A stretch of DNA of 32,000 nucleotides from Limnospira fusiformis SAG 85.79 (GCF_012516315.1 NZ_CP051185.1:1135403-1167402); one strand, 5' to 3'; positions 919 through 24,680 are shown, counted from the stretch's first letter. A program made the numbers and translations. The notes: generated by a model from the letters alone, not told the origin.

Positions 919-2025
919 TTAGATAATTTGGGAACTGGGTATTGGTAAGGAAAATGTGAAGGTGCTACCTTTGCCTAACTGACTACTAACGAAAATTTCG
1001 CCGCCTTGAAGTTCCACCAAACGCCGGGTAATAGCTAAACCAATTCCGGTACCTCCATAATTGCGCGATCGCGATCTATCAGCACGCCAAAATCTTTCAA
1101 AAACATGGGGTAAATCTGCCTCAGAAATACCAATTCCGGTATCGCTGACATCCACAAACAAGTAACCACCATGAGTATAAACTTCTATTTTAATTAGACC
1201 ATGTTTGGTGTATCTGATGGCATTTCCTAATAAATTAACTAAAATTTGTTCAGTGCGATCGACATCAGCTAAAGCCAGGGGTAATTCTTCAGAAAAATCT
1301 AATTCTAATATCGGTCCTTCTTCCAGAAGTTGATCAGAAAAACGCTGCACCAAAGACTCTAATAAAGGCCGTAATGCTAAAGGTTGGGGGTTAATGGGTA
1401 AATATCCAGATTCAACCTTAGAGAGTTCTTGTAAGTTATTTATCAGCCTTTCCAGGCGTTTAGTTTCCTTGGTTAACTGCTGATAAATATCTGGTGATGG
1501 CGAAATTCTGCCTTCGGCCATTTCTTCTAAGTATCCGCGAACTACAGTGATCGGAGTTCGCAATTCATGGGTCAAATCACTAATTAATTCCCGCCGTTTT
1601 TGTTCAACATCTTGAAGACTACTAGCCATCTGATTAAAACTCATCGCCAGTTGATTTAATTCATGAATTTCACTAGATGACATCCTTTCTGAGAGATTAC
1701 CCTTGGCAAATTTATGGGTAATTTCTTCCATCTCGGTGAGAGGCTGAGTAATGCGTTTAGTCACCCAATAACTTAAACAGACAGCAGCAGTTGTTCCGGC
1801 TAAAACAGACCAAAAAGTGCTACGATTCCAAGCAATTTCAAAGCCTTCTACTAGGCGAGTTCTTACATATTGTAAGCGAAAGCCAGGACCTTCTAGTTGT
1901 TCCAAACTACGGACAAAGAACCGAGGAGAGGAAATTTTGCCGATGATCACCAGGGATGTGACCCCAATCAGCATAACCAGGAGGTGGGATAAAAATAGGC
2001 GCGATCGCAAATCTACCTTTGCCAT
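919..2025 (-). CDS. sensor histidine kinase (TM-HAMP-HisKA-HATPase_c)
   Basis: H-box LTHELRTPITVVRGY, N-box NLLGNAIRYT, G-boxes DTGIGI and GGTGIGLAI. I start at the internal ATG (MAKVDLRS, codon 30 of the track ORF) because codons upstream of 2047 are group II intron domain V/VI sequence. Confidence 0.85.
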   Translation of the reverse strand: MAKVDLRSRLFLSHLLVMLIGVTSLVIIGKISSPRFFVRSLEQLEGPGFRLQYVRTRLVEGFEIAWNRSTFWSVLAGTTAAVCLSYWVTKRITQPLTEMEEITHKFAKGNLSERMSSSEIHELNQLAMSFNQMASSLQDVEQKRRELISDLTHELRTPITVVRGYLEEMAEGRISPSPDIYQQLTKETKRLERLINNLQELSKVESGYLPINPQPLALRPLLESLVQRFSDQLLEEGPILELDFSEELPLALADVDRTEQILVNLLGNAIRYTKHGLIKIEVYTHGGYLFVDVSDTGIGISEADLPHVFERFWRADRSRSRNYGGTGIGLAITRRLVELQGGEIFVSSQLGKGSTFTFSLPIPSSQII

Positions 2026-2124
2026 TAGTTCTGGGTATGTATGATCTAGTAGGGGTCGAGAGAGATGTCGCCATCTCCCCCTCCCATACAAAACCGTACT
2101 TGAGGCTTTCACCTCATACGGCTC

Positions 2125-4818
2125 CTAATCTGATTGTTCCATTGTTAATGATACAGCGTTGGCGTTATCTAGCGCCGTCTTATCATCATGACAGTGGCGG
2201 TGTAATAATTGAAGGTTCTTGTATTCATCCTTTCCGCCTAAACTTCGAGGTATAATGTGGTCTACTTCAACTAAATCCGATGGTGCGAAATACTGTCCAC
2301 ACCAGGTACACCTACCTTTTTGCTTTTTGAGTAGTTTTGCTACCCTGTTTGGCGTGTCGATTGCTTGTCCTTTCCTGGTTGCCCAGTAAGTCCAGTTTCC
2401 GTCGTATGGTGTTGCATCTGGGCGTATTAGGGTGTGTCTAACATTTGGAGTCCAATTGTGTTTCCATAGTTGAACTCCATCTTTGGTCTGGAATAACCAA
2501 GATTCATGCCTTTCTTTCCCATTGCTAAGTTTTACCGTTCCATGTTTGAAATAGTTTCTTAGCTTCTCGTAACTTGCCTTTCTGCATCTTGATGCTGTCC
2601 ATGCCCTTAGCATTAGCCAGATGGTAGGGGTCGAAAGGAAAGTCACCTTTCCCAACTCCCATTCAAAACCGTGCTTGAAAGTTTCCCTTCACACGGCTCC
2701 TGATGTGGATACCCTCTTTGTCAAAGGAACAAGGTTACTACCCCCTGCTTTATGACTTCAACTTTGGGAGCTATATGCTTGCGTTAGTCTTTAAACTCGC
2801 TTTCGCCATTAAACTCTTACTTATCGCAGTCTCTATATCCATATCGTGACTAGTGGGCATATCCCAACCATTACAGTTAGGCATTGGCTTTCAGTCACAT
2901 CCCTTCCCCTTATGGGCTTGCGCTTACACTTTTCACTACTCTACGAGATGTACTCGCAGAGAGCCCAACAGGGGTTTCAACGTTCCGTATATATGGGCAT
3001 TCCATCTTTAGATTTGTCCTATCCACCGGGGTACATTTAAAGGTCTGTGTAGGTGATGACATAATTACCCTACTTTTCCCCTTGTCCTTTTGGACGCAGC
3101 GTATCAGCCTATTTCGCTGCTAACTAGTTACGGTGGTTCAAGCCAGACATTCGGTTTCCCTAATCATGGATGGTTGGCAGTGGTCGCCTCTGGTAGTAGG
3201 TTCTACTTCACGCCTTCCGTTCCCCGCTTCAATCCCAGATTTGTGATTTCTGAAACTGGGGGTGGCTACCGCCTTTACTCTTTCCCAAATCACCCCAAGT
3301 GGGTTGAAATACTCCTCCTTGTAGTATACTTGGAAGATAAAAGTGTATTCTGTGATTTCTTAAATGGGATTGACCCTGAGTTCCCTGCCTTGCTTAGATT
3401 CACAACTCCCTAAGCGTCGGGACATATATACAGTTGAGGGGTTAGACCGATACTGAGTAACCGTGTAAAGGTCTAATTGCCCTCTAGGAGGTTATTTCGG
3501 CATTGCAGCCTTATTTGACTCCTAAACGTTTCGCACTATATAGTCTAGCTTAACGAAGGTCTCTGTTGAGACGACCGCTGAGTAGTAGTTTGACCATCCC
3601 CGAATAATCGGGTTTAGATTACTTATCAGGGCTGATTGGGGTGCTGTTTTATGTCGTTTTATTACACCCTTAATCACTTCTGTATGGGCTTTGATTGCTT
3701 TCTGACTAGGTTTGATGTGGGTTGGGAACCCTAATGGTTTCCCATGTGGACTTTTCCCAGTTTTATATTTTCCTACAGGATATTGCCTAATATTGAATCC
3801 TAAGAAATCAAATCCAGGTTCTTCAAGTTTTCTATCATATTCAATAGGATTGAGTGTATGACAGATTCGAGTTTTCTCCGGTTTAATCTTTAACCCAATA
3901 GGTTTTAACCATTCGGAAATAGCAATCTTGCATTGTTCAATAATCTCTAGTGATGGTGATATCACTACAAAATCATCGGCGTATCTTATTAAGTTGGCTT
4001 TGACAGCCTTCCCTTTTTTCTTAGGATACATTGTTTCAATTACTCTAACCATTCCCAACAGTGCGATGTTGGCGAGTATTGGACTTATTACCCCTCCTTG
4101 GGGTGTCCCTGTTTCTGTATCCTCGAATACGTCGTTATCCAAAACACCCGCTTTAAGCCATTGTTTCAGGTCTCTCTTCAGGCTGCTCGGACAATGAATT
4201 TTGGACAATAGGTAATCATGGTTCACGGTAAGAGCATTTCGCTATATCAGCATCGAGAACATAGTATTGTCCTTGATTTATGGCAGTATAGATTCTACCA
4301 ATTGCGTCATGGGCTGACCGACCGGGACGGAACCCATAGCTTGTGCCTTCAAATCTTGATTCCCATTCAGGTTCGAGAGCCGACTTAACCAAGGCTTGCC
4401 TTGCTCTGTCTTGGATTGTGGGTATTCCCAGAGGGCGTTTTTCATCCCTGCCAGGTTTTGGAATCCACACCCGTCGCAGTGGTTTTGCTTTGAGGTTTCC
4501 CTTAATGCTCTCAACAAGTTCAAACCTTTGCCTTGGAGAGATTGCTCTCATTCCATCGACTCCAGCCGTTTTCTTACCTTGATTATCTTGGGTCACTCGC
4601 CGCACTGCTAAGAGTCGGGCATAATATGACTTCACCAATAGACGTTGCAACCTTCTTGCCTTTGCATCCTGTCCCGATTTAGCTGCTTGAAATATCCTTT
4701 TTTGGAGCTTGAAAACTTTCCGCTGAACCTTAGTCCATGGGATTGCCTTCCATGCGTTGTTCGTAGTCTTGATTGGTTTGGGCTTACCAAATCCTTTCTT
4801 TAAACTCGCTATCGCCAT
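2125..4818 (-). pseudogene. group II intron reverse transcriptase/maturase/HNH endonuclease (IEP), split by a nested intron and one frameshift
   Basis: Three track ORFs: 4216-4818 (RT0-3: GVDGMRAISPRQR, RPLGIPTIQDRARQ, YGFRPGRSAHDA), 3522-4226 (RT4-7 with YADDFVV, X domain RGWSNYY) and 2125-2655 (HNH: CTWCGQYF...EVDHIIPRSLGG...HRHCHDDKT). There is a frameshift near 4216-4226 (KCSYR/NHDYLL). The 2623-3536 interruption is an intron. Confidence 0.85.
2623..3536 (-). mobile_element. ORF-less group II intron nested in the IEP ORF of intron A (inner intron of a twintron)
   Basis: GTGCGAAACG begins at 3536, directly after host codons KLDYI. Domain V GAGCCGTGTGAAGGGAAACTTTCAAGCACGGTTT is at 2665-2699 and domain VI ends ...CGACCCCTACC at about 2623. 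The host ORF then resumes in frame as IWLMLRAWT; the uninterrupted homolog at 11252-11290 reads KLDNIIWQMLRAWT. Only a stub of an IEP remains (ATGGCGAAAGCGAGTTTAAAGA from 2809). Confidence 0.8.
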
Positions 4819-5528
4819 ATGTACATCTACTAGGCTCTATTTCTTACAATCCAACCGTGACCCGTTAGCATATCCCTACCATTACAGTCGGGCTTTGGCT
4901 TCTGGTCACATCTCACCCCCTAATAGGCTTGCGCTTACATTTGTCACTACTGATATCTCGACCAGATTATCAGAGCCTAAAAGGGGTTACAACGTTCCGT
5001 TTATATGGGCTTTCCATCTTTAGACTTGTCCTATCCACCGGGGTACTTTTTAAAAGTCTGTGTAGGTGTTATTAACAAAACCCTACTTTTCCCCTTGCTC
5101 TTTTGAGCGCAGCGTGTCAACCTGTTTCGCTACTGAATACTTACGATGGTTCAAGTCGGAACATTCAGATTTCCTTAGTCATGGATGGTTGGCAGTGGTC
5201 GTATTATTGGGAATAGGTTTTCCCTCACGCCTTCCGTTCCCCGCTTCAATCCTGAGGTTATGATTCCCAAAACTGGGGGTGGCTATCGCCGTTACTCTCT
5301 ACTCCCTGATTTCTCAGTTTGTTTATGACCTTGAGTTCCCTGCCTTACTTAGATTTCTCCAAGCGTCGGGACATATAAACAGTTATGGGGATGGGCAGGT
5401 GTGCTATCCTTATGTTCAACCGAGGGGTTGAAATCCGCACCAGGCGGTTATTTCAGGTATTGCAACCTTATTTCATGCCTGAACGTCTCGCACGATAATT
5501 TCTATCCTACACTCAAACTTTCAACAGT

Positions 5529-5563
5529 AAAAAGCCCCGCTTGACCAACAAATCAGCGGGGCC
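5529..5563 (-). terminator. Rho-independent terminator (minus strand)
   Basis: Stem GCCCCGCT (5534-5541) pairs with AGCGGGGC (5555-5562). On the minus strand the hairpin is followed by TTTTT (5529-5533). It lies just downstream of the minus-strand ORF ends at 5565 and 5590. Confidence 0.7.
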
Positions 5564-5589
5564 TTTATAAGGAAACCTTTAAAGTAGGA

Positions 5590-5711
5590 TTATCGCATAT
5601 CCCAGAGAGCCTTAAACAAAGTCTCAGGCAGCTTTCTGGAGGTGGCATTCCTGGCAGCCTTGAGCGCGGCCACGGAAACTGTGTTCCCTTTGTGGTATGC
5701 TCTGGTAATCC
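5590..5711 (-). pseudogene. possible 3'-terminal remnant of a chromosomal gene truncated by the intron stack
   Basis: The open frame ...ITRAYHKGNTVSVAALKAARNATSRKLPETLFKALWDMR* ends 27 nt before the terminator. Its upstream continuation is replaced at 5712 by an antisense group II intron 5' end. Frame choice and family are uncertain. Confidence 0.25.
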
Positions 5712-6118
5712 GTGCGAGACGTTCAAGCATGAAATAGGGTTGAAACACCCGAAATAACCGCCTGGTGGGGACTTCAACCCCTTGATTGAATATAAGGAAC
5801 GCACTCCTGAACATCCCCATAACTGTTTATATGTCCCGAATATTTGTATCACACGATACCAAATCAAGGCAGGGACTCCAAGCTCAACATACTTTGTAAC
5901 AAAACGTAACAATTCTTAACATAACGGAAAAGTTACGACAAAAGGTGAGGATAACGGCGATAGCCACCCCCAGTTTTAGGACTCACAACCCGTCAGATTG
6001 AAGCGGGGAACGGAAGGCTCCAAGGTGTAACCCAACACCAGAACCGAGACCACTGCCAACCATCCATGATTAGGGAAACCGAATGTCTGGCTTGAACCGC
6101 CGTAAAGAGTAAGTAGCG
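5712..6118 (+). mobile_element. group II intron B, 5' fragment (domain I), interrupted by intron C
   Basis: GTGCGAGACGTTCAAGCATGAAATAGGG at 5712. It is colinear with intron D (6266 onward) up to ...GTAAGTAGCG, where a new GTGCG starts. No 3' half is present in the window. Confidence 0.75.
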
Positions 6119-6979
6119 GTGCGAGACGTTCAGGCATCAAATAGGGCTGCAATGCCCGAAATAACTGCCTGGTGAGGATTTCAACCCCTTGGTTGAATAT
6201 AAGGAGCGCACTCCTGACCATCCTCATAACTGTTTATATGTCCCGACGTTAGTATAGAAATATACGTGTGATTCGTTTAGGAGTCAAATAAGGCTGCGAT
6301 GCCTGAAATAACCTCCTAGTGGGACTTCCACCCCTGGGTGGAATATAAGGGATTCACACCCCTGACCATCCCATAACTGTTTATATGTCCCGACGATTTG
6401 TATCTTAGGATACCAAATCAAGGCAGGGAACCCAAGGTCAATACACTCTGTAACAAATCGTAATAATTCTTAACATAATGGAAAGTACGAAACAGAGGTG
6501 AGGGTAACGGCGATAGCCACCCCCGGTTTTGGGACTCACAATACCAAGACCGAAGCGGGGAACGGAAGGCTCCGAGGTGTAACCTAACACCAGAATCGAG
6601 ACCACTGCCAACTATCTATGATTAGGGAAACCGAATGTCTGGCTTGAACCACCGTAACTAATAAGCAGCGAAATAGGTTGATACGCTGCGCTCAAAAGAG
6701 TAAGGGGAAAAGTAGGGTTTTCTATAGGACACCTACACAGACCTTTAAAGATACCCCGATGGATAGGACAAATCTAAAGATGGAATGCCCATATAAACGG
6801 AACGTTTTAACCCCTTTTAGGCTCTGATAATCTGGTCGAGAGAGTCAGTAGCGAAAAGTGTAAGCGTAAGCCTATTAGGGGGTGAGATGTGACCAGAAGC
6901 CAACGCCTTACTGTAATGATAAGGATATGCAGACGGGTCACGGTTTGATTGTAAAGAATAGAGTCTAGTAGGAGCACAA

Positions 6980-7551
6980 ATGGCGCAGGCGAGTTTAAAG
7001 AAAGGCTTTGGTAAACCCAAACCAATCAAGACTACGAAAAACGCATGGAAAGCAATTCCATGGGCGAAAGTCCAGCGGAAAGTTTTCAAACTCCAAAAGA
7101 GGATATTTCAAGCAGCTAAATCGGGACAAGACGCAAAGGCAAGAAGGTTGCAACGTCTATTGGTGAAGTCATATTATGCCCGGCTCCTAGCAGTACGGCG
7201 AGTAACCCAAGATAATCAAGGCAAGAAAACGGCTGGAGTCGATGGAGTAAGAGCAATCTCTCCAAGGCAAAGGTTTGAACTGGTTGAGAGCATTAAGGGA
7301 AATCTCAAAGCCAAACCACTGCGACGGGTGTGGATTCCAAAACCTGGAAGGGATGAAAAAAGCGGGAATGGGAATACCCACTATCCAAGATAGAGCAAGG
7401 CAAGCCTTGGTCAAGTCGGCACTTGAGCCCGAATGGGAATCAAGATTTGAGGGCACAAGCTATGGGTTTAGACCTGGCAGGTCGGCTCAAGATGCAATAG
7501 CACGAATTTACTCAAGTATTAACAAAGGTGAATACTTCGTGTTAGATGCGG
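6980..7551 (+). pseudogene. group II intron RT (IEP) N-terminal part of intron D
   Basis: MAQASLKKGFGKPKP... is about 95% identical to the IEP of intron A. A +1 frameshift near 7345-7365 joins track ORFs 6980-7393 and 7275-7577. The ORF is cut at 7551/7552 by a GTGCG intron 5' end. Confidence 0.85.
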
Positions 7552-7596
7552 GTGCGAGACGTTCGGGTATGAAATAGGGCTGAAATGCCCGAAATA
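7552..7596 (+). mobile_element. group II intron E, 45-nt 5' stub inside the IEP ORF of intron D
   Basis: GTGCGAGACGTTCGGGTATGAAATAGGGCTGAAATGCCCGAAATA is identical to the first 45 nt of intron F (13252 onward). It is truncated by ISA-1 at a TA. Confidence 0.7.
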
Positions 7597-8554
7597 TAGC
7601 ATTAGTCAAGGTGGTTAGGACGCAGCTTTGAGAACGGAATCCATGGCATCATGGAGAGAATCAAACTGCTCAATGCAGTGGCGAATACGGGCTTTCAGCC
7701 ACGACCAACATTTCTCTATCTTGTTGAGGTCTGGCGAATAAGGTGGTAGATAGAGTAAACGGCATTGAGCTGCCTCCACCAGTTCAGCAATCCGCCCCCC
7801 TTTATGAAACGTTGCATTGTCCAATACTAGAGTCTGACCTGGCTTCAATGTTGGAATTAAGATGAACTCCAACCACAACTCAAACACTGTCCGATTACAA
7901 CAACCCTCAAAGCTAAAGGGAGCTAAGAGTTGTTGATGACACCATGCGGCTATCATACTTACCCTGCCCTGCCTCTTCCCTGATTTGAGTGCATGGAAGC
8001 GTTTTCCTTCCTCGCAGTAACCATAAGGGTAATCCGAGTCCTGACTATTCATGGCGGCTTCATCGAGGTAGACCACTTCTTGTGGCTCCATCTGTTCAAT
8101 CTGAGCCATAAACTCCTCTCGCTGTTGCTTCCAACGTTCTTGGTAGCCGTAAGTTTTTTTTTCTGGTGAAGCCAATTTTCTTCAAGGCTCTGGATATGGT
8201 GCGAGGAGAGATGTCGTCATCCCAAAGTTCAGCCATTTGAGCTGCTGTTTTGTCGCCATGCTCTTGGGCAAAAGCCTTGAATTTCTGCCAGTCGGTAATT
8301 TTGTGGTTATTGCCAGGTCGGTGATGAGGTTTAGGGAGGAAGTCTCCGGTCTGTGCTTTTCTTTGCAGCCAGAGATTAATGGTGTTCCTGCTGACATGGA
8401 AAACTTGACTGGCTTCTGTTTTGGGCATACCGTCTAGTTCAATGGCATCAATAACTTTTTGTCTGAGGTCGTAACTATAGGGGGCTGGCATTTTTGGTCT
8501 TCTTAGTCATCTCGTCCTCTCCATTATACGTCCTAAGTATTCTGTCTTGTGCTA
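7597..8554 (-). mobile_element. IS630-family insertion sequence, copy ISA-1
   Basis: Ends are TAGCATTAGTCAAGGTGGTTAGGACG... and ...CGTCCTAAGTATTCTGTCTTGTGCTA (imperfect inverted repeats), with TA on both sides. The same 957-958-bp unit occurs at 12246-13203 and 23722-24678. Confidence 0.85.
7615..8491 (-). pseudogene. IS630-family transposase, frameshifted in a T9/A9 homopolymer
   Basis: Track ORFs 8096-8491 (HTH part) and 7615-8175 (DDE part: VYLDEAAM, LVLDNATFHK, YLPPYSPDLNKIEKCW). The run at 8154-8162 has 9 nt, against 8 nt in the copies where the two parts are fused. Confidence 0.8.
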
Positions 8555-8556
8555 TA

Positions 8557-9540
8557 TAAGTTATCACAACCAACTACCATGAGCCGTTACTCTTTAGATT
8601 TTCGGAAAAAGATAGTAGAAGCCTATGAAAAAGGAGACACTTCTATCCGAAAAGTAGCGAAACGCTTTTTGGTGAGTCCAGACACGGTAAGGCGACTGGT
8701 CAAACAGTATCGATTAACGGGAGACTTATCTCCTCGTAAGTGTGGCACTAAAAAGAAAAGCATTTTATCTAAGCATGAGGAAGCCGTGATAGATATTGTA
8801 GAAGCCCACCCCGACCTGACCTTATGGCAATATAGTGATAAGCTCAGAGACAAGCTGGGCATAAATGTCAGTACGACCATGATAGATAGATTTTTAAAGC
8901 AGCACGATATAAGTCTCAAAAAAAAACATACAGGAGCGAAAAAGTAGTAACAGAAGAAGTACAGAAAGCGCGAGTAGATTATTGGGAAAGAATTAGAGAT
9001 GTGGCTCGTGAAAAGCTTGTGTTTATTGATGAAAGTGGGTTATGGGTAGGGATGAGCAGACCGTTAGCCAGAGCGACGAAAGGGAAAAAAGTCTATGAAC
9101 TGCGGAAATCCTATCGAGGTCAAAAAATGACAATAATTGGTGCAATTAAGCTCTCCGGAGGGGTGGCGACTCAAACATTAGAAGGGTCCATGAAAAAAGA
9201 GGATTTTCTCCAATTCATCAAGTTAGATTTATTGCCAAAATTAAAAAAAGGAGATGTAGTGGTAATGGATAACTGAAATTCTCATCATCGAGAAGAAGTC
9301 AAAGAAATGATAGAGTCAGTAGGAGCCAGGGTAGAATATCTGCCGGTGTATTCCCCTGAGTTTAACCCGATAGAGATGATGTGGTCACAGCTCAAAAGTT
9401 TAGTGTGCAAGTTCAGGACGGAGACCATGGAATTATTAGTGAGATTGGTAGAAGTGGCGGTAAGCCTTGTGGATTTACAGTGTTTGAATAACTGGTTTAC
9501 CAAGTGTTGTTAATGTGCTTAATGATTGAGATAAAGGCTG
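8557..9540 (+). mobile_element. second IS630-family insertion sequence type, ISC (full length)
   Basis: It starts TAAGTTATCACAACC directly after the TA that also flanks ISA-1, and ends ...GATAAAGGCTG before TA at 9541. It encodes an HTH plus DDE transposase distinct from ISA. Confidence 0.7.
8579..9513 (+). pseudogene. IS630-family transposase of ISC (A9 frameshift site plus in-frame TGA)
   Basis: The ORF from ATG 8579 runs to stop 8947. The downstream frame (open from the A-run; track ORF 9001-9276) reads KLVFIDESG. It is joined to the first ORF only by a -1 shift in the A9 run at 8918-8926. An in-frame TGA at 9274-9276 (VVMDN*NSHH) is followed by 9307-9513 (YLPVYSPEFNPIEMMW). Confidence 0.75.
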
Positions 9541-9897
9541 TATATCGTGCTGCTTTAAAAATCTATCTATCATGGTCGTACTGACATTTATGCCCAGCTT
9601 GTCTCTGAGCTTATCACTATATTGCCATAAGGTCAGGTCGGGGTGGGCTTCTACAATATCTATCACGGCTTCCTCATGCTTAGATAAAATGCTTTTCTTT
9701 TTAGTGCCACACTTACGAGGAGATAAGTCTCCCGTTAATCGATACTGTTTGACCAGTCGCCTTACCGTGTCTGGACTCACCAAAAAGCGTTTCGCTACTT
9801 TTCGGATAGAAGTGTCTCCTTTTTCATAGGCTTCTACTATCTTTTTCCGAAAATCTAAAGAGTAACGGCTCATGGTAGTTGGTTGTGATAACTTATA
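9541..9897 (-). mobile_element. partial inverted copy of ISC (left 357 bp only)
   Basis: This is the reverse complement of 8555-8911. Track ORF 9475-9900 encodes the same 119 N-terminal residues as 8549-8947, then diverges at ...KQHDI. Confidence 0.8.
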
Positions 9898-9905
9898 CAA
9901 TAGCC

Positions 9906-11021
9906 CTAAGTACAGGACAAAAGTTGTAGAGCCTGGTGAAACCGCCCTGAAAACAAAGGCAGATTAGAGAAAGTGCGGCGTAGAAAATCGAAGCCAGTGC
10001 GGAAAAGACTCTGGGAGCGTCGTCCGTGAGCCTTCAAAGGAATGGGTGAACCTTGGTGAATCCACAAACCCACCTTCATAGCCCAAGTAAAAGCCAGGCT
10101 AAGCAAAGCCAATAAACGGCTCAAGCGCTCAGGGTCCTTAAAGTGAGTCGATTCGAGACAGAAGCCCCGAGTCTTCAAGGCTCCGAAGAGGTTTTCAATA
10201 CCCCAACGCCGAGCATAGTCGGGGAGGGCCGTTTCGGGGCAAGCGTTAGTGATGAGAATCAACAACTCCCCCGAATCAGCCAGACGAGAGCCAATGACGT
10301 AAACCTGCCGTCCCCAAACCCAACGGCGACCCGAAAGCTGGCGAAATTCTCCGGGTCGCAGAGAATCAAACATTCGTTCGCCGCTACGCCGAGTTCCTCC
10401 TAACTTAGGACTAATCAGCTCGCTGTGGCGGATGCGTAGGCGGAAAGGAACCTCGGGGTCGATGAGAAGATACGAGAGCCAATCTCGCCCCACAAATTCC
10501 CGGTCAGCGGTCAGACAAGCCACCTCCACGTCAGGAAATAGTGCCTCGAAGCGGTCGAATAAGTCCATGCGTTCGCCACTGTTGCTATTGCCCTTTTTGT
10601 CAAGCATCGTCCACAGCAGGGGAAAGGCAATCCCCTCGTGGACGACTGCCAACATCAAGATGTTGAAATGGGTTTGACCGAAAGACCAACAGGTGCGGTC
10701 GAGACTAAGAGTCCAAGGTTGGGGAATGTCAATGAGGCTAACGACGAAACGGGCAATCTCTGCCCGGTCAAATTTGAATTGCCGAAAAAAACGTTGTAAT
10801 CGCTGGTAATTTGAGGAAATTTGCACAGGATTTGCGAATACAGTCGCTATTTCCATCAGATTAACCGTCTTTGTTTGGAATAGCGCCATCAGGAACAGAC
10901 AGACAAAGTTTAATCTCGCCCCGTGCCAGGGCAAGTGAGGGCGCAAAGTGTCTCGTAATCGGTTAAGCTCGTTCATGAGAGGGAAGTTTGGTTTGTGGTA
11001 ATTCCGATGTAACCCTCTCAC
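9906..11021 (-). CDS. IS4-family DDE transposase
   Basis: 371-aa ORF with motifs LSLDRTCW, LTADREF and YARRWGIENLFGALK (Y-R-E-K signature). The stop codon is the last 3 nt of the element. The real start may be the ATG at MNELNRL (codon 16). Confidence 0.85.
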   Translation of the reverse strand: MRGLHRNYHKPNFPLMNELNRLRDTLRPHLPWHGARLNFVCLFLMALFQTKTVNLMEIATVFANPVQISSNYQRLQRFFRQFKFDRAEIARFVVSLIDIPQPWTLSLDRTCWSFGQTHFNILMLAVVHEGIAFPLLWTMLDKKGNSNSGERMDLFDRFEALFPDVEVACLTADREFVGRDWLSYLLIDPEVPFRLRIRHSELISPKLGGTRRSGERMFDSLRPGEFRQLSGRRWVWGRQVYVIGSRLADSGELLILITNACPETALPDYARRWGIENLFGALKTRGFCLESTHFKDPERLSRLLALLSLAFTWAMKVGLWIHQGSPIPLKAHGRRSQSLFRTGFDFLRRTFSNLPLFSGRFHQALQLLSCT

Positions 11022-11141
11022 CCCAACTTGGCGCTACCCCCCCACCCCTCGACTTTCACCTCGGCCCGGAGCGCCCCCTTCAGAATTTTCGGCTAGATTC
11101 CCTTTTGGCTAAGACTTTCAGCTTTTTTGTCCTGTACTGAG
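9906..11141 (-). mobile_element. IS4-family insertion sequence, copy ISB-1
   Basis: The 1236-bp unit has terminal inverted repeats CT(C/A)AGTACAGGACAAAA and is near-identical to 22474-23709. No matching direct repeat flanks this copy. Confidence 0.85.
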
Positions 11142-11764
11142 TTAAACAACATAAAACAGCACCTCAATCAGCCCTGATTAGTAAACTAAACCCGATTATT
11201 CGTGGATGGTCAAATTACTACTCAGGGGTCGTCTCAATGGAGACTTTCAGTAAGCTAGACAATATAATCTGGCAAATGTTGCGGGCATGGACAGTGTCAA
11301 GATGCGGAAAGGCAAATTATGAAAAACTAGGAAACTATTTCAGTAATGGAACGGTTAAACTTAGCAATGGGAATGAAAGACAGGAAGCTTGGTTGTTCAG
11401 GACCAAAAATGGGTTCCAGTTATGGAAACATAGTTGGACTCCAATTGTTAGACATACCTTGATACGCCCGGAAGCAACACCATATGACGGAAACTGGACT
11501 TACTGGGCAACCAGACGAGGTCAGGCAATTGAAACGCCAAGTAGGGTAGCAAAACTACTCAAGAAGCAAAAAGGCAGGTGTACCTGGTGTGGGCAATACT
11601 TTACCCCATCAGACCTAATTGAAGTAGGCCACATTGTACCTCGAAGCCTCGGTGGAAAGGATGAATACAAAAATCTTCAGCTATTACATCGCCATTGTCA
11701 CGATGATAAGACGGCACTAGATAACGCCAACGCTGTATCCCTAACAATGGAGCAATTAAACTAG
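11142..11764 (+). pseudogene. group II intron IEP C-terminal part (X domain plus HNH) of intron D
   Basis: The sequence resumes ...KTAPQSALISKLNPIIRGWSNYY right after ISB-1, then continues as track ORF 11237-11764, which ends with the HNH motif (CTWCGQYF, HRHCHDDKT). It is about 85% identical to 2125-2655. Confidence 0.85.
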
Positions 11765-12245
11765 GAGCCGTGTGAAGGGAAACTTTCATGCACGGTTCTG
11801 AATGGGAGGGGGTGAAGGTGACTTCACTCTCGACCCCTAATAAAACAAAGCAGGGAACTCAAAGTCAAAAACGCCAAACTGGAAATCTTAATGATTCCTT
11901 AACAATTGCGTTTAAAGTAAAGGCGGTAGCCACCCCCAGTTTTGGGAATCACAAACCCAGGATTGAAGCGGGGAACGGAAGGCGTGAAGTAGAACCTACT
12001 ACCAGATGCGACCACTGCCAACCATCCATGATTAGGGAAACCGAATGTTCGGCTTGAACCATCGATAACACTAAGCAGCGAAATAGGTTGTGACGCTGCG
12101 CCCAAAAGGGCAAGGGGAAAAGTAGGGTAATCGCAACATCACCTACACAGACTTTTAAAGGTACCCCGGTGGATAGAACAAATCTAAAGTTGGAATGCCC
12201 ATATAAACGGAACGTTTAAACCCCTCATAGGCTCTCTAATAAATA

Positions 12246-13203
12246 TAGCACAAGACAGAACACTTAGGACGTATAATGGAGAGGACGAGATGACTAAGAA
12301 GACCAAAAATGCCAGCCCCCTATAGTTACGACCTCAGACAAAAAGTTATTGATGCCATTGAACTAGACGGTATGCCCAAAACAGAAGCCAGTCAAGTTTT
12401 CCATGTCAGCAGGAACACCATTAATCTCTGGCTGCAAAGAAAAGCACAGACCGGAGACTTCCTCCCTAAACCTCATCACCGACCTGGCAATAACCACAAA
12501 ATTACCGACTGGCAGAAATTCAAGGCTTTTGCCCAAGAGCATGGCGACAAAACAGCAGCTCAAATGGCTGAACTTTGGGATGACGACATCTCTCCTCGCA
12601 CCATATCCAGAGCCTTGAAGAAAATTGGCTTCACCAGAAAAAAAACTTACGGCTACCAAGAACGTTGGAAGCAACAGCGAGAGGAGTTTATGGCTCAGAT
12701 TGAACAGATGGAGCCGGAAGAAGTGGTCTACCTCGATGAAGCCGCCATGAATAGTCAGGACTCGGATTACCCTTATGGTTACTGCGAGGAAGGAAAACGC
12801 TTCCATGCACTCAAATCAGGGAAGAGGCAGGGCAGGGTAAGTATGATAGCCGCATGGTGTCATCAACAACTCTTAGCTCCCTTTAGCTTTGAGGGTTGTT
12901 GTAATCGGACAGTGTTTGAGTTGTGGTTGGAGTTCATCTTAATTCCAACATTGAAGCCAGGTCAGACTCTAGTATTGGACAATGCAACGTTTCATAAAGG
13001 GGGACGGATTGCTGAACTGGTGGAGGCAGCTCAATGCCGTTTACTCTATCTTCCGCCTTATTCGCCAGACCTCAACAAGATAGAGAAATGTTGGTCGTGG
13101 CTGAAAGCCCGTATTCGCCACTGCACGTGAGCAGTTTGATTCTCTCCATGATGCCATGGATTCCGTTCTCAAAGCTGCGTCCTAACCACCTTGACTAATG
13201 CTA
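12246..13203 (+). mobile_element. IS630-family insertion sequence, copy ISA-2
   Basis: Full-length unit flanked by TA (12244-12245 and 13204-13205). The flanks join to the uninterrupted intron sequence ...AATAAATAAGTGAG... as seen in intron F (about 13765-13790). Confidence 0.88.
12309..13130 (+). CDS. IS630-family transposase (HTH and DDE parts fused; 1-nt insertion truncates the last ~24 residues)
   Basis: 273-aa ORF. The A-run at 12638-12645 has 8 nt, so both domains are in one frame. CACTGCACGTGAG here compares with CACTGCATTGAG in the other copies, giving a premature TGA at 13128. Confidence 0.75.
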   Translation: MPAPYSYDLRQKVIDAIELDGMPKTEASQVFHVSRNTINLWLQRKAQTGDFLPKPHHRPGNNHKITDWQKFKAFAQEHGDKTAAQMAELWDDDISPRTISRALKKIGFTRKKTYGYQERWKQQREEFMAQIEQMEPEEVVYLDEAAMNSQDSDYPYGYCEEGKRFHALKSGKRQGRVSMIAAWCHQQLLAPFSFEGCCNRTVFELWLEFILIPTLKPGQTLVLDNATFHKGGRIAELVEAAQCRLLYLPPYSPDLNKIEKCWSWLKARIRHCT

Positions 13204-13251
13204 TAAGTGAGCAATATTACTCACAAGAGTAGTGAAAAGTGTAAGCGTATG

Positions 13252-13968
13252 GTGCGAGACGTTCGGGTATGAAATAGGGCTGAAATGCCCGAAATAACTA
13301 CCCGGTGAGGATTCCAGCTCCGAATCTGGATATAAGGAGACCTCTCCTGACCATCCTCATAACTGGTTATATGTCCCGACGCTTAGGGAACTAAGCAAGG
13401 CAGGGAACTCAAGGTCATAAACGAACTGAGAAATCAGGGAGTAGAGAGTAACGGCGATAGCCACCCCCAGTTTTGGAAATCATAACTCCAGGATTGAAGC
13501 GGGGAACGGAAGGCGTGAGGTAGAACCTACTACCAAGACGCGACCACTGCCAACCATCTATGATTAGCAAGACCGAATGTCCGACTTGAACCATCGTAAT
13601 ACACTAGCAGCGAAATAGGTTGACACGCTGCGCTCAAAAGGGCAAGGGGAAAAGTAGGGGGTTCGTGCGACTACCTACACAGACCTTTAAAAGTACCCCG
13701 GCGGAGAGGACAAATCTAACGATGGAATGCCCATATAATCGGAACGTTGTAACCCCTCTAATGCTCTGCCTATAAATAAGTGAGTAATGCTATTCACAAG
13801 GTAGTAGTGAAAAATGTAAGCGCATGCTTAGAGGGTGAAGGATGTGACCAGAAGCTAAAGCCCAATTGTCATGGTTGGGATATGCCCACAGGTCACGGTG
13901 GGGATATAGATACTGCGGTCAGTAAGAGTATAATGGCGAGGACGAGTTTAAAGACTACGTGGTGCATA
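13252..13968 (+). mobile_element. group II intron F (ORF-less type), 5' 717 nt, truncated by ISA-3
   Basis: GTGCGAGACGTTCGGGTATGAAATAGGG at 13252, inside intron C after ...GTAAGCGTATG. It is colinear with the nested intron at 2623-3536 through the IEP stub ATGGCGAGGACGAGTTTAAAGA (13933). No domain V is present. Confidence 0.75.
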
Positions 13969-13970
13969 TA

Positions 13971-14233
13971 TAGCATTAGTCAAGGTGGTTAGGACGCAGC
14001 TTTGAGAACGGAATCCATGGCATCATGGAGAGAATCAAACTGCTCAATGCAGTGGCGAATACGGGCTTTCAGCCACGACCAACATTTCTCTATCTTGTTG
14101 AGGTCTGGCGAATAAGGTGGTAGATAGAGTAAACGGCATTGAGCTGCCTCCACCAGTTCAGCAATCCGCCCCCCTTTATGAAACGTTGCATTGTCCAATA
14201 CTAGAGTCTGACCTGGCTTCAATGTTGGAATTA
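13971..14233 (-). mobile_element. IS630-family insertion sequence ISA-3, truncated (263 bp of the transposase 3' end)
   Basis: Identical to ISA-1 7597-7859 (TAGCATTAGTCAAGG...GGAATTA), after which similarity stops abruptly. Track ORF 13989-14222 is the last 77 residues of the transposase. Confidence 0.85.
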
Positions 14234-14291
14234 TATATTTTCAATAACCTCGTGATTGTTAAGGATAAAGAATCAGTTAAAATTTAGTTTC

Positions 14292-16910
14292 TTACTTGAT
14301 GATTAGTTCTCTGGGTAATTTCTTGAAAGAAAGCCGCTCATTTTCGACATCAACATAGATGGTATTTCCATCATTAAACTCTCCCCGAAGAATGCCTTTG
14401 GCAATTTGTGTTTCTAGTTCCTGTTGAATAGCTCGTTTGAGGGGACGGGCTCCATAAACGGGGTCAAAACCGACATCAGCTAGGTAGTCCAGGGCGCTCT
14501 CAGACAATTTTAAGGACATTTTATGCTGCTCTAGGCGCTGAGAAAGATTGCCTAATTGTAGGAGGACAATTTCGCGCAATTGGTGGGGTTTGAGAGAGTG
14601 GAAAATAATAATTTCATCAATGCGATTAAGAAACTCTGGACGAAAAGCCGATCGCATAGAATCCATAACCCGGTGACGCATTTCCTCATAGCGAGAATCA
14701 TCGCCAGCAATATCCAAAATATACTGCGACCCAATGTTACTGGTCATAATAATGATAGTATTTTTGAAATCGACAGTACGACCTTGAGCATCAGTCACTC
14801 GACCATCATCAAGAATCTGAAGCATGACATTAAAGACATCAGGATGAGCCTTTTCTATCTCATCAAACAGAATGACAGCATAGGGACGGCGGCGGATCGC
14901 CTCAGTGAGTTGTCCTCCCTCATCATAACCTACATATCCGGGAGGAGCGCCCAAAAGGCGGGAAACGGAGTGTTTCTCCATGTATTCAGACATATCAACA
15001 CGCACGATCGCCTCTTCGGTGTCAAATAGGTAGGAGGCTAAAGCCTTAGCTAGTTCGGTTTTACCGACTCCGGTTGGTCCGAGGAAGATAAAACTAGCCA
15101 CAGGTCGGTTAGGGTCGGACAGACCAGCGCGCGATCGCTGAATAGAGTCAGCGACGGCTGTTACAGCTTCATCCTGTCCCACTACCCGTTGATGTAACTC
15201 ATCTTCTAAATGCAGTAATTTCTCCTTCTCAGATTCGACTAATTTACTAATAGGAATCCCCGTCCACTTAGAGATAATTTCAGCAATATCAGACTCGGTT
15301 ACTTCTTCCCGGAGGAGAGTTTTCCCTCCGGTTTGAGTATCTTGTAATTGTGACTCAGCTTGATGGAGTTGTTTTTTGAGAGCTTCCAGGGTCCCATATT
15401 TCAACTCAGCAGCGCGGTTGAGATCGTAATTACGTTCGGCTTGTTGAATTTCAATGTTAACCCGATCAATCTCTTCTTTGAGGGACTGAATATGGGTAAT
15501 TGTATTTTTTTCCGACTCCCACTGAGCGCTGAGGGTGCGTTGTTCTTCCTTCAGGTTGGCTAAGTCTTTTTCCAGTCGTTCTAACCTTTCTTGGGAGGCG
15601 GTATCACTTTCTTTTTGCAAAGACAGTTTTTCCATTTCTAATTGGAGGATTTTCCGGTCGATTTCGTCTAGTTCCTCCGGCTTAGAAGTGATTTCCATTT
15701 TCAACTTAGCAGCGGCTTCGTCTACCAAGTCGATCGCCTTATCAGGAAGGAAGCGATCGCTAATATAGCGAGTAGACAGAGTAGCCGCCGCCACCAAAGA
15801 ACTATCAGAAATCTTCACCCCATGATGAACCTCATAGCGTTCTTTCAAGCCTCGTAAAATCGAGATAGTATCAACCACATTAGGCTGATCAACGTAAACC
15901 TGCTGAAAACGTCGCTCTAAGGCTGCATCTTTCTCAATATACTTACGATATTCATCTAAGGTTGTGGCACCAATACAGCGCAACTCACCCCTAGCTAACA
16001 TAGGTTTCAGGAGGTTTCCCGCATCCATCGCACCTTGGGTAGCTCCCGCACCAACAACGGTGTGAATCTCATCAATAAATAGGATGATTTTACCTTCCGA
16101 GTCCGTCACTTCTTTCAGGACTGCTTTTAAGCGTTCTTCAAATTCTCCCCGAAACTTAGCCCCCGCAATAAGTGACCCCATATCCAGTGCTATTAGTTTT
16201 CTTTCTTGGAGAGATTGAGGCACATCTCCGGCGATAATACGTTGAGCCAATCCTTCTGCGATCGCAGTTTTTCCAACTCCTGGTTCCCCAATTAAAACCG
16301 GATTATTTTTAGTGCGCCGACTCAAAATTTGAATAGTGCGACGGATTTCTTCATCCCGACCAATTACCGGGTCTAATTTCCCCATACGCGCCGCTTCAGT
16401 TAAATCGCGTCCATATTTCTCCAAGGCTTCATATTTGCCTTCCGGGTTCTGATCTGTCACAGTTTGATTTCCTCGAATTTGGGTAATAATTTGTTGAAGT
16501 TTCGCTTCATCTAGTCGAAATTCTTGATAGAGAGTTTTACCAAATCTAGCATCTTTAGTGTAAGCCAATAACAGATGCTCAACCGATATATATTCGTCTC
16601 CATATTGTTGGCGGTAGGCTTCAGCGTTGTCTAACAGCGTATCTAAAGTGCGACCTAAATATACGTTGGTGCTGTTTCCTTTAATTTTCGGTTGACGATT
16701 AATAAAGTTTTCCGTACTTTCCCGGACCTTAGCTACTGATATTCCCGCTTTGTTAAATAAACTATTAGCCAGTCCATCTTGCTCTAGCAAGGCTTTCATC
16801 AAATGCTCAGTTTCGATTTGTTGTTGTTGAGCCTGTTTGACTATATCGGGAGTTTGTGCTAAGGCTTGCCATGCTTTTTCTGTAAATTTACTCGGATCTG
16901 TGGGTTGCAT
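14292..16910 (-). CDS. clpB: ATP-dependent chaperone ClpB
   Basis: 872 aa with two AAA+ modules (Walker [10 protein letters not shown] and GPTGVGKTE), a long coiled-coil middle domain between them, and the Clp N-domain. Confidence 0.95.
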
Positions 16911-21143: not shown

Positions 21144-22133
21144 ATGACATTAACAATAAAGCCGAGAAAAATTCTCTTAGATACTGACCCAGGTGGGGAT
21201 GATGTGTTCGCTTTGCTATGGTTGCAAAGTTTGGTTAGCCAAGGTATGGCTGAATTGGTGGCGGTGACAACTGCAGAAGGAAATGTGGAGGCTCAACGCA
21301 CTTTTACCACGGCTAGTCAGGTTCTGGCTTGGACTGGAATGGATGGGGTGACGGTGGGTCGTGGGGTGATGGGGGTTAATTCTTTGGTGGGAAATGCTAG
21401 TCATATTCACGGGGATGATGGTATCGGGAATTTGTCGGATACTTTACCGCCGCCTACCCATAATTTTGAGGAGGCTTTGGGTTCGCCACAGGTGATTATT
21501 GACTGTTTAGAAAAATATCCAGGGGAAATTACTATAGCAGCGATCGCCCCTTTAACTAATTTAGCCGCCGCAGAACAAATACGCCCAGGTATTCTCAAGT
21601 TAGCGCGGGAAATTGTGATTATGGGGGGTTCTTTTCATTTGGGGGGAAATGTTACCCCCCATGGAGAGTTTAATATTATTTATAACCCGGAAGCGGCGGC
21701 TACTGTTTTCGCCAGTCGTCATGATTTGGTGATGATTTCCTTAGATGTTACCCAGCATTTAATTTTCACCCCAGAAATTAGCGATCGCATAGCCGCAGTT
21801 AATCCCCAAAGTGCGATCGCAGAATTTATAGTTGATTTAGTCAAGTTCATGGTAACAACCGCCTTAAAAAACCGCCGCACTCGTGGGATTCCCGGTTTTT
21901 TAGTGCATGATGCCGCTACTATCGCTTATATATTCTACCCGGAATTATTCAAGTTTTACCGGGCGAAAGTTGAGATAGAAACCCAAGGAATATCAACTCG
22001 CGGTCTCACCTGGTTTGACCGCACCCATAAACCCAAATTAGATGTTAATAGTTGGGTAATTTCCGAGGTAGATGATGATATGTTTTTTGCGATTTTAGTC
22101 GAAGACTTGAAACAATTAATAATTAATAATTAA
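21144..22133 (+). CDS. inosine/uridine-preferring nucleoside hydrolase family protein
   Basis: 329 aa with the N-terminal IUNH signature LLDTDPGGDDVFAL (DxDxxxDD) and a family-typical length. The last residues (QLIINN) are encoded by the TAATTAA-type microsatellite that follows. Confidence 0.85.
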   Translation: MTLTIKPRKILLDTDPGGDDVFALLWLQSLVSQGMAELVAVTTAEGNVEAQRTFTTASQVLAWTGMDGVTVGRGVMGVNSLVGNASHIHGDDGIGNLSDTLPPPTHNFEEALGSPQVIIDCLEKYPGEITIAAIAPLTNLAAAEQIRPGILKLAREIVIMGGSFHLGGNVTPHGEFNIIYNPEAAATVFASRHDLVMISLDVTQHLIFTPEISDRIAAVNPQSAIAEFIVDLVKFMVTTALKNRRTRGIPGFLVHDAATIAYIFYPELFKFYRAKVEIETQGISTRGLTWFDRTHKPKLDVNSWVISEVDDDMFFAILVEDLKQLIINN

Positions 22134-22473
22134 TAATTAATAATTGATAATTGATAATTGATAATTAATTACCGATTACCGATTGTCCATGGCCGATTAT
22201 CGATGGTTGAAAGGATTAATTTTCGTCGCTGAGAATTTGAGGAACTCGGAAGAAATCCCCTAACAATTAATAATTAATAATTAACAATTAATAATTAATA
22301 ATTAATAATTAATTACCGATTACCGATTGTCCATGGCCGATTATCGATGGTTGAAAGGATTAATTTTCGTCGCTGAGAATTTGAGGAACTCGGAAGAAAT
22401 CCCCTAACAATTAATAATTAATAATTAATAATTAATAATTAACAATTCATAATGGACAATTTATAATTGATAA
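22134..22473. repeat. tandem repeat, units R1 (22168-22260) and R2 (22312-22404), with (TAATTAA/TTGATAA)n spacers
   Basis: The 93-bp core ATTACCGATTACCGATTGTCCATGGCCGATTATCGATGGTTGAAAGGATTAATTTTCGTCGCTGAGAATTTGAGGAACTCGGAAGAAATCCCC is repeated at a 144-bp period. The core equals the gatC 3' end plus downstream DNA. Confidence 0.9.
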
Positions 22474-23709
22474 CTCAGTACAGGACAAAAAAGCTGAAAG
22501 TCTTAGCCAAAAGGGAATCTAGCCGAAAATTCTGAAGGGGGCGCTCCGGGCTGAGGTGAAAGTCGAGGGGTGGGGGGGTAGCGCCAAGTTGGGGTGAGAG
22601 GGTTACATCGGAATTACCACAAACCAAACTTCCCTCTCATGAACGAGCTTAACCGATTACGAGACACTTTGCGCCCTCACTTGCCCTGGCACGGGGCGAG
22701 ATTAAACTTTGTCTGCCTGTTCCTGATGGCGCTATTCCAAACAAAGACGGTTAATCTGATGGAAATAGCGACTGTATTCGCAAATCCTGTGCAAATTTCC
22801 TCAAATTACCAGCGATTACAACGTTTTTTTCGGCAATTCAAATTTGACCGGGCAGAGATTGCCCGTTTCGTCGTTAGCCTCATTGACATTCCCCAACCTT
22901 GGACTCTTAGTCTCGACCGCACCTGTTGGTCTTTCGGTCAAACCCATTTCAACATCTTGATGTTGGCAGTCGTCCACGAGGGGATTGCCTTTCCCCTGCT
23001 GTGGACGATGCTTGACAAAAAGGGCAATAGCAACAGTGGCGAACGCATGGACTTATTCGACCGCTTCGAGGCACTATTTCCTGACGTGGAGGTGGCTTGT
23101 CTGACCGCTGACCGGGAATTTGTGGGGCGAGATTGGCTCTCGTATCTTCTCATCGACCCCGAGGTTCCTTTCCGCCTACGCATCCGCCACAGCGAGCTGA
23201 TTAGTCCTAAGTTAGGAGGAACTCGGCGTAGCGGCGAACGAATGTTTGATTCTCTGCGACCCGGAGAATTTCGCCAGCTTTCGGGTCGCCGTTGGGTTTG
23301 GGGACGGCAGGTTTACGTCATTGGCTCTCGTCTGGCTGATTCGGGGGAGTTGTTGATTCTCATCACTAACGCTTGCCCCGAAACGGCCCTCCCCGACTAT
23401 GCTCGGCGTTGGGGTATTGAAAACCTCTTCGGAGCCTTGAAGACTCGGGGCTTCTGTCTCGAATCGACTCACTTTAAGGACCCTGAGCGCTTGAGCCGTT
23501 TATTGGCTTTGCTTAGCCTGGCTTTTACTTGGGCTATGAAGGTGGGTTTGTGGATTCACCAAGGTTCACCCATTCCTTTGAAGGCTCACGGACGACGCTC
23601 CCAGAGTCTTTTCCGCACTGGCTTCGATTTTCTACGCCGCACTTTCTCTAATCTGCCTTTGTTTTCAGGGCGGTTTCACCAGGCTCTACAACTTTTGTCC
23701 TGTACTTAG
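22474..23709 (+). mobile_element. IS4-family insertion sequence, copy ISB-2
   Basis: 1236 bp with the same termini as ISB-1, flanked by a perfect 9-bp direct repeat AATTGATAA (22465-22473 and 23710-23718). Confidence 0.9.
22594..23709 (+). CDS. IS4-family DDE transposase
   Basis: 371-aa ORF, identical in protein sequence to 9906-11021. Confidence 0.88.
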   Translation: MRGLHRNYHKPNFPLMNELNRLRDTLRPHLPWHGARLNFVCLFLMALFQTKTVNLMEIATVFANPVQISSNYQRLQRFFRQFKFDRAEIARFVVSLIDIPQPWTLSLDRTCWSFGQTHFNILMLAVVHEGIAFPLLWTMLDKKGNSNSGERMDLFDRFEALFPDVEVACLTADREFVGRDWLSYLLIDPEVPFRLRIRHSELISPKLGGTRRSGERMFDSLRPGEFRQLSGRRWVWGRQVYVIGSRLADSGELLILITNACPETALPDYARRWGIENLFGALKTRGFCLESTHFKDPERLSRLLALLSLAFTWAMKVGLWIHQGSPIPLKAHGRRSQSLFRTGFDFLRRTFSNLPLFSGRFHQALQLLSCT

Positions 23710-23721
23710 AATTGATAATTA

Positions 23722-24678: not shown

Positions 24679-24680
24679 TA

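Follow-up and report, generated by a model that had tools for sequence, protein, structure and literature searches.

A decayed nest of group II introns, overprinted by insertion sequences, in Limnospira fusiformis SAG 85.79

Group II introns carry a 5' GUGYG terminus followed by domain I, and end in domain V and a branch-site domain VI (DV/DVI); the intron-encoded protein (IEP) lies in domain IV and has reverse transcriptase (RT) and maturase (X) domains and, in many classes, D/En (HNH) domains. They spread by retrohoming, in which intron RNA, once spliced out, reverse-splices into a DNA target selected by pairing between exon-binding and intron-binding sites (EBS/IBS) and is copied by the RT/maturase with its HNH endonuclease. 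We describe here a 32,000-nt stretch of DNA from the cyanobacterium Limnospira fusiformis SAG 85.79 (the window) in which positions 5712-14233 hold a nest of such introns. Nests of this kind have been described before. In Methanosarcina acetivorans, as far as two later papers recount the original work, nested arrays of up to five introns are interpreted as 'perpetual homing sites' (Dai & Zimmerly 2003, via PMC4424553 and PMC2882425). By the same account, that system and ours share several nested introns with no coding exons around them, repeated site-specific homing of introns without an open reading frame (ORF) and of RT-encoding introns into related introns, ORFs included, and loss of copies by deletion or recombination. 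The Limnospira nest differs in its cyanobacterial host, in its diverged lineages and its target sites, at least four of each, and in a heavy overprint of IS630- and IS4-family insertion sequences (ISs) that leaves it truncated and most of its levels incomplete.

The twintrons of Thermosynechococcus elongatus resemble our case in that ORF-less derivatives sit at a conserved position within the RT ORF of ORF-containing relatives, one intron is interrupted by an IS, targets are chosen mainly by EBS/IBS pairing and mobilisation occurs in trans (PMC2882425). There the site lies between the first and the second ATG, the nesting is one level deep and the inner copies are identical, intact and mobile (PMC2882425), whereas the RT-ORF site in the window lies at the LDA/D codons (RT motif 3 region) and the nest is deeper, diverged and mostly broken. 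Trichodesmium erythraeum likewise has an intron within an intron in the repeat-rich genome of a filamentous cyanobacterium, but its twintron sits in a protein-coding gene and splices sequentially in vivo (PMC4649490); the plus-strand array described here is intergenic and unspliceable. The 'zombie' twintrons of plant mitochondria also combine loss of splicing with an intron family invading its own relatives, although they are organellar and eukaryotic and have no IS elements (PMC7049729). Arthrospira is the most intron-rich bacterial genus known, its genomes holding between 101 and at least 150 group II introns each (PMC8919778, PMC2853384), and we found no description of nested intron arrays in Arthrospira in the searchable literature. 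The structure is therefore of an already described kind, set apart mainly by the diversity of its lineages and target sites and by the heavy IS overprint. An earlier reading, made from the sequence alone (the sequence-only reading), had proposed that the introns form a landing pad for one another; that idea is not new, having already been drawn from the M. acetivorans arrays and the T. elongatus twintrons (PMC4424553, PMC2882425).

The interval is very probably a decayed nest of mobile elements, built by successive retrohoming and then broken by IS insertion and deletions; as a nest it is genuine but non-functional. Intron 5' ends were sought over the 32 kb with an nhmmer profile of the first 140 nt of the window introns, home-made profiles having been adopted after the Rfam D1-D4 models failed to match. 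Exactly seven ends were found, five on the plus strand (5712, E=4e-41; 6119, E=5e-44; 6266, E=3e-37; 7552, E=4e-10; 13252, E=5e-40) and two on the minus strand (5493, E=1e-43; 3536, E=4e-31). All seven copies begin GTGCG or GTGTG, copy E matching the profile over 45 nt only, and the profile recovered every one of the five plus-strand ends that the sequence-only reading had listed. Their domain I sequences had been called near-identical, which overstates the likeness: the copies are 69-90% identical in pairwise comparison, the exception being E against F (100% over 46 nt), and they form at least four lineages told apart by their first 25 nt. The introns are as follows.

5712-6118, plus strand: intron B, 407 nt of domain I, broken off in the putative EBS2 loop exactly where C starts
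6119-6265, plus strand: intron C, piece 1, nucleotides 1-147, ending in a GTATA-GAAA-TATAC hairpin
6266-7551, plus strand: intron D, 5' segment, domains I-III and IEP codons 1-190, with a +1-nt patch near 7359; Pfam RVT_N
7552-7596, plus strand: intron E, first 45 nt only, following ..TTAGATGCGG in the D RT gene (LDA/D codons)
11142-11841, plus strand: intron D, 3' segment, IEP codons 387-591 (X, D, HNH) and DV/DVI at 11763-11841; Pfam HNH
11842-12245, plus strand: intron C, piece 2, domain I picking up right after D's last base
13204-13251, plus strand: intron C, piece 3, about 46 nt, ending ..AAAAGTGTAAGCGTATG at the start of F
13252-13970, plus strand: intron F, an E/F-lineage mini-intron without an ORF, about 717 nt
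3537-5493, minus strand: intron A, 5' segment, domains I-III and the RT/X region of the IEP, with a frameshift patch reading KCSYREP-stop
2623-3536, minus strand: intron A', 914 nt, ORF-less, inside the IEP gene of A, with a 5' GTGCG and DV/DVI
2048-2622, minus strand: intron A, 3' segment, IEP C-terminus with HNH (ORF 2125-2655) and DV/DVI at 2049-2126

Only three 3' ends are present in the window (11841, plus; 2623 and 2048, minus), as judged by Rfam RF00029 together with a DV/DVI profile. At the gathering score RF00029 reports D with 60.6 bits (11763-11841, plus), A' with 59.7 bits (2624-2701, minus; 3' profile E=1e-25) and A with 59.4 bits (2049-2126, minus), and even at E<=1 it gave no further DV/DVI and none for B, C, E or F in the window. 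Both ends are thus kept only by D on the plus strand and by A and A' on the minus strand. The outer plus-strand introns cannot splice because they have no 3' end in the window; on both of these points the sequence-only reading was right. The IEP of A, once repaired, matches the group II RT/maturase model TIGR04416 at 333 bits (cut-off 300), and Pfam finds RVT_N, RVT_1, GIIM and HNH domains in the protein. The ORF of A is frameshifted and split by A', that of D lacks codons 191-386, and A', E and F are of the ORF-less type. Most cyanobacterial introns belong to the chloroplast-like (CL) type (PMC8919778), and this norm, with the En domain of the IEP, gives only indirect support for a possible place of the present introns in that class.

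For D in C the nesting is proven. D has both of its termini, and C domain I resumes at 11842 directly after D, as the sequence-only reading had noticed; once rejoined, C aligns colinearly with A, A', D and F. For comparison, 79 loci encoding related IEPs were fetched (L-numbers denote loci); Arthrospira platensis PCC 7345 is a species other than the source. The rejoined junction, GTATAGAAATATAC followed by AAAACAA(A)G, equals the uninterrupted hairpin GGTATAGAAATATACAAAACAAGG of L012, L017, L024, L025 and L064, an empty-site match in which no bases are gained or lost, and piece 1 of C shows 99% identity to an uninterrupted L074 intron across 131 nt. The minus strand offers a second case: A' in A is a complete twintron level with both junctions kept, and the reading frame of A rejoins over it (..KLDYI/IWLMLRAW). 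The 3' segment of A is 83.5% identical to that of D (11267-11842).

The other levels are seen at their 5' junctions. The IEP of D matches that of A before E (codons 1-190, as aa 1-127 and 127-190 in tblastn) and again after the block of ISs (codons 387-591), but 588 nt (196 codons) of the D RT gene are gone, D resuming at 11142, and E in D fails the rejoining test for that reason. C in B and F in C likewise keep the 5' junction only, the tails of B, C and F being absent from the window: B has no continuation there, whereas its paralogue in L089 runs on past the same point, C has none after the start of F, and F, which stops at a truncated IS630, is without its last 150-200 nt or so, DV/DVI included. 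The exact GTGYG termini of C, E and F nevertheless adjoin internal positions of B, D and C respectively, which is the signature of retro-insertion. Rejoining of the flanks, named beforehand as the check on which the claim of nesting could fall, therefore holds for D in C and fails for D around E. True nesting stands for D in C, and for A' in A on the other strand; the clean four-deep stack of the sequence-only reading does not, since E is a 45-nt stub and the D flanks around it do not rejoin.

That reading had also taken the interval as introns only and missed more than half of it. Self-comparison, ORF content and family searches assign about 4.77 of its 8.52 kb (56%) to insertion sequences:

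7597-8554, minus strand: IS630-family copy 1, ends TAGCATTAG...CTTGTGCTA, TA on both sides
8557-9895: chimeric IS630-like element at a TA abutting IS630 copy 1, with 357-bp perfect inverted ends
9906-11141, minus strand: IS4-family element (NCBIfam IS4, 298 bits), inverted ends CTAAGTACAGGAC/CTCAGTACAGGAC
12246-13203, plus strand: IS630-family copy 2, inverted relative to copy 1, TA duplicated (12244-12245 and 13204-13205)
13971-14233, minus strand: IS630 fragment, 263 nt from one end, truncated at ..GGAATTA

The IS630 transposase has the Pfam domains DDE_3 and HTH_Tnp_IS630 and scores 198 bits with NCBIfam IS630, and a TA stands at every end of these elements. Copy 2, which is 99% identical to the other copies and encodes an intact 273-aa transposase, is a simple TA-duplicating insertion in C, so that C lies in three pieces rather than the two first described, with the IS between 12245 and 13204. 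Its rejoined flanks match F: 13203-13251 of C aligns with 13776-13826 of F, contiguously with the preceding C/F match. Copy 1 (99.2% identical to 23717-24680, where an intact copy lies at 23722-24678) cuts E at the TA of 7595-7596, and its right-hand flank is another IS and not intron E. The fragment at 13971-14233 is 100% identical to copy 1 and abuts DNA downstream of clpB. The IS4-family element is 99.8% identical to 22471-23709, where an intact copy (22474-23709) has a 9-bp target duplication, TTATCAATT, in line with the 9-12 bp of the IS4 family. The copy in the nest has none, its left flank being CAATAGCC and its right flank the D IEP, and for want of that duplication we place it at a rearranged junction. 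Eight nucleotides at 9898-9905 lie outside the assigned elements.

Between copy 1 and the IS4-family element, 8555-8911 is the reverse complement of 9541-9897 (100% over 357 nt by self-BLAST). Two coding regions for N-terminal helix-turn-helix domains face each other there around a partial DDE_3 ORF. The element at 8555-9897 looks like a head-to-head chimera, and it is conserved in three complete genomes. We also observed that the TA at nucleotides 44-45 of E/F-type mini-introns, which holds an IS630 relative in the window (7595-7597), holds one in L074 too (PCC 7345; position 3336), in the opposite orientation and in a mini-intron occupying a different host site. This TA may be a preferred IS630 target, although there are only two independent events; a metagenome scan for further cases returned only the L074 locus again (L093 is the same locus).

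The introns have entered recurrent sites within their relatives. At least four target sites are used in the nest: the RT ORF, the domain I hairpin, the EBS2-loop region and the boundary of domains I and II (DI/DII). The first of these (..GATGCGG) is occupied by a full-length E/F-lineage intron at 3047 of L079 (PCC 7345), and 3' junctions at the same site, an inner intron end followed by ATATAGCGAAATGC, occur in L052, L061, L067, L072, L073, L079 and L086. The F site (GTGTAAGCG, then T or G, then ATG; the GTGTAAGCGNATG site) holds the same intron lineage in L074 (PCC 7345) and shows a 3' junction in L050, and F itself carries, at its DI/DII boundary, a near-perfect target for F. The domain I hairpin entered by D carries insertions offset by +3 or +4 nt in L017, L023 and L047. 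All three of these sites are filled in PCC 7345. Recurrent occupation of this kind supports site-specific homing into relatives, and the proposal that the introns home into their own kin is upheld by the return of the same junctions and the same lineage in A. platensis PCC 7345. At the sampled loci, intron 5' ends abut intron sequence in 16 of 39 cases from Arthrospira/Limnospira and in none of 8 from other genera.

Covariation in 14 copies placed a putative EBS1 in a GTAGGG-loop-CCTAC hairpin, pairing with flank positions -6 to -1, and a putative EBS2 in the loop before GCGAAAYAGG, pairing with -14 to -9; an earlier candidate for EBS1, in the third variable loop near CTCTGATAATCTGG, was dropped for the GTAGGG-loop-CCTAC hairpin after this analysis. 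With these assignments F in C pairs at 12 of 12 positions (EBS2/IBS2 6/6 and EBS1/IBS1 6/6; shuffle P~3e-4), A' in A at 11 of 12 (shuffle P~0.02), A at 10 of 12 and C in B at 9 of 12 (shuffle P~0.02).

The spacer between the diverging A and B is the 5' exon of both, and is an intron target on both strands.

5494-5711: spacer between A (minus strand) and B (plus strand), a repeat of about 213 bp with a terminator-like hairpin at 5528-5560

A paralogue, 92% identical, lies upstream of ribBA in Limnospira loci L089-L092 (L089, 5986-6232), and it bears another, diverged intron 5' end at the exact position of B. We considered whether B interrupts a gene: a 40-aa frame beside it matched only Limnospira ORFs of 46-52 aa, which we judged spurious and set aside. 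Those 46-52-aa 'hypothetical proteins' (P0001, P0002), read out of the antisense ends of introns in the repeat, are probably spurious.

Taken in order, the history would begin with the entry of a B-type intron into this small repeated sequence, followed by C into domain I of B, by D into the domain I hairpin of C with the ORF-less F further along C, and by the sister mini-intron E into the RT gene of D, while on the minus strand A would have received the ORF-less A'. Each plus-strand step (C in B, D in C, E in D, and F in C) would have proceeded by reverse splicing and then target-primed reverse transcription, and the ORF-less A', E and F would have been mobilised in trans by the protein of a relative, as has been shown experimentally for the TeI3 introns of T. 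elongatus (PMC2882425). Elements of the IS630 and IS4 families would then have inserted into the introns, and deletions or rearrangements at IS ends are the likely cause of the loss of E from nucleotide 46 to its end, of 588 nt of the D RT gene and of the tails of F, C and B. Abortive reverse transcription was rejected as the cause of truncation; it would lose 5' ends, not 3' ends. The array would now be inert DNA, persisting because insertions into selfish elements cost the host nothing.

Several points weigh against this account. Full nesting of C in B, F in C and E in D is something that we infer, since only the 5' junctions survive. The Rfam group-II-D1D4 models gave no match at the gathering score or at E<=1 over 1900-14400, so that the covariance-model check which found D5/D6 at 11841 left domains I-IV to be identified only by homology among the copies; the lineage probably lies outside the coverage of those models. 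The loci sampled for the count of intron 5' ends lying against intron sequence (16 of 39) are biased towards intron-rich neighbourhoods. The EBS assignments come from 14 copies only and the signal is modest. D in C, the level established by its junctions, pairs at 8 of 12 positions, which is background, with no in-register match; the putative EBS1 loop of D (TTTTCTATAGGAC, 6718-6730) is instead complementary at 8 of 8 positions to TATAGAAA (6253-6260), 5 nt upstream of D. We found no deletion intermediates, the order and mechanism of the deletions being deduced, and the complete identity of E(1-46) with F(1-46) and of the IS630 fragment with copy 1 hints at duplication or gene conversion.

The flank of A has ATAGAAA at the same offset as the upstream complementarity of D, and the paralogous flank in L089 diverges right after ATAGAAA. 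We considered and rejected an offset splice site, by which A- and D-type introns would have five extra 5' nt. The TATAC in question completes the C hairpin, uninterrupted relatives have it too, and the in-register site suits the loops of A itself.

Another explanation for the junctions of B with C, C with F and D with E is recombination or segmental shuffling among dispersed intron and IS copies, D in C alone being true nesting. The position of the nest gives this some appeal. The nest ends beside clpB:

14292-16910, minus strand: clpB, whose product is identical in many Arthrospira/Limnospira assemblies

Because other strains carry different DNA beside clpB, we place the nest at a strain-variable synteny break. 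L002, L005 and L007 hold other genes there, L002 and L005 having one short intron 3' fragment only, in the opposite orientation, and the junction of the truncated IS630 fragment with the clpB flank is common to L005, L007 and L008, strains without the nest. A break of this kind fits the extensive rearrangements reported between Arthrospira groups (PMC4991836). The missing target duplication of the IS4-family element, the 588 nt lost from D at the E/IS block and the mosaic nature of intron copies in the genus could likewise be read as products of shuffling. Homologous recombination would not, however, start each inner element at an exact GTGCG terminus; the same lineage stands at the same junction in another species, with L079 showing this at the E site and L074 at the F site; and the putative EBS loops of F match its flank throughout. 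We therefore regard shuffling as an unlikely source of these three junctions and prefer successive retrohoming.

Introns A (4301-5509, minus) and D (6250-7498, plus) form a 1.25-kb inverted repeat, 83% identical, with its arms about 740 bp apart. Long inverted repeats have been linked to chromosomal inversions in Arthrospira (PMC4991836), and the A/D pair is of that kind.

A functional multi-level twintron, spliced sequentially as in Trichodesmium and affecting the expression of neighbouring genes, is highly improbable. D, A and A' keep both termini and a good DV/DVI, and sequential splicing is documented in a cyanobacterium (PMC4649490). Moreover, a HAMP/HisKA/HATPase histidine kinase encoded on the strand of A/A' has its ATG 22 nt beyond the end of that twintron (2023-2047). 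Expression of the kinase may depend on a promoter inside or beyond A/A', or on splicing; exact-protein look-ups with two choices of start codon returned no empty site upstream of it. Against a functional array, B, C, E and F have no 3' end in the window, D is interrupted by an IS block of 3.6 kb and is short of 196 RT codons, and the plus-strand array lies outside genes and reads towards the 3' end of clpB on the opposite strand. For D itself to splice, the 3.6-kb insertion would have to be spanned and a maturase would have to come from elsewhere, in trans.

That dispersed repeats were collapsed or chimerically joined during assembly is very improbable even in a region built of multi-copy repeats where the draft assemblies L006, L008 and L009 break off exactly at the nest edge (at 14073-14236), for its junctions are coherent (TA duplications, exact intron termini, frame-preserving rejoining) and the window from 4.3 to 26.9 kb (22.6 kb, the whole nest included) is colinear at 99.87-99.95% with CP146095.1, FO818640.1 (PCC 8005) and CP162027.1, three complete and independently deposited chromosomes of 6.2-6.5 Mb, the reproduction of the whole array in independent finished genomes making mis-assembly very unlikely.

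Three short patches break the RT ORF in many diverged Arthrospira copies (4216-4260 and 7350-7400 in the window; L049-L088). The first, found in A, is a -2-nt change after LDADIAKC (KCFDRINHDYLL) that gives KCSYREP and a stop codon, plus GTG-NHDYLL; the second, found in D, is a +1-nt change at DEKRPLGIP that gives DEKS.. plus ATG-KKAGIGIP; the third is a 55-nt hairpin-like insertion in the RVT_N region that gives ATG-LPNSQ..QGKKTAGVDG. Each gives the downstream segment a new in-frame start codon (ATG or GTG) that overlaps the upstream stop or lies shortly ahead of it, and the first occurs in at least 21 of 34 copies. The patches might be taken to mark a split, multi-piece RT/maturase or a recoding signal, with patched copies still active as drivers of the nesting, a possibility to which we give a low probability. 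For patched and unpatched copies alike, the downstream half has a ratio of non-synonymous to synonymous substitution (dN/dS) of 0.16. We had thought of this as a sign of selection after the frameshift and abandoned the argument: patched copies are intermingled with unpatched ones in the tree and are not monophyletic. Their non-monophyly also weighs against a split RT, as do the further breaks in many of the N-terminal segments. Because the patched copies are intermingled in this way, gene conversion among mosaic copies is the simplest reading.

Elsewhere in the window, short direct-repeat arrays at 22111-22481 and 24679-24931 flank the intact IS4 and IS630 copies (self-BLAST only). They lie downstream of a nucleoside hydrolase gene and show registers of about 144 bp and of 7 bp at 86-97% identity. 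A 564-aa ORF on the minus strand (25852-27546) has orthologues in L001 and L003 (1-1060) with OrfB_IS605 and Cas12f-like TNB domains (TnpB-type). The segment around it, at about 25.9-27.5 kb, is absent from L002 and L005 and is a further strain-variable mobile element.

Our findings leave the current picture of group II intron biology unchanged and give a detailed case of how arrays of introns within introns are built and then eroded in Arthrospira. They point to specific recurrent homing sites inside relatives, namely the RT gene, the domain I hairpin and the DI/DII boundary, to ORF-less mini-introns as the most active invaders and to IS elements as the agents of decay. Regions of this type break draft assemblies and yield spurious small ORFs, so the case should be useful in annotating these commercially important genomes, and the nest provides a natural catalogue of target sites for the intron lineages that it contains.

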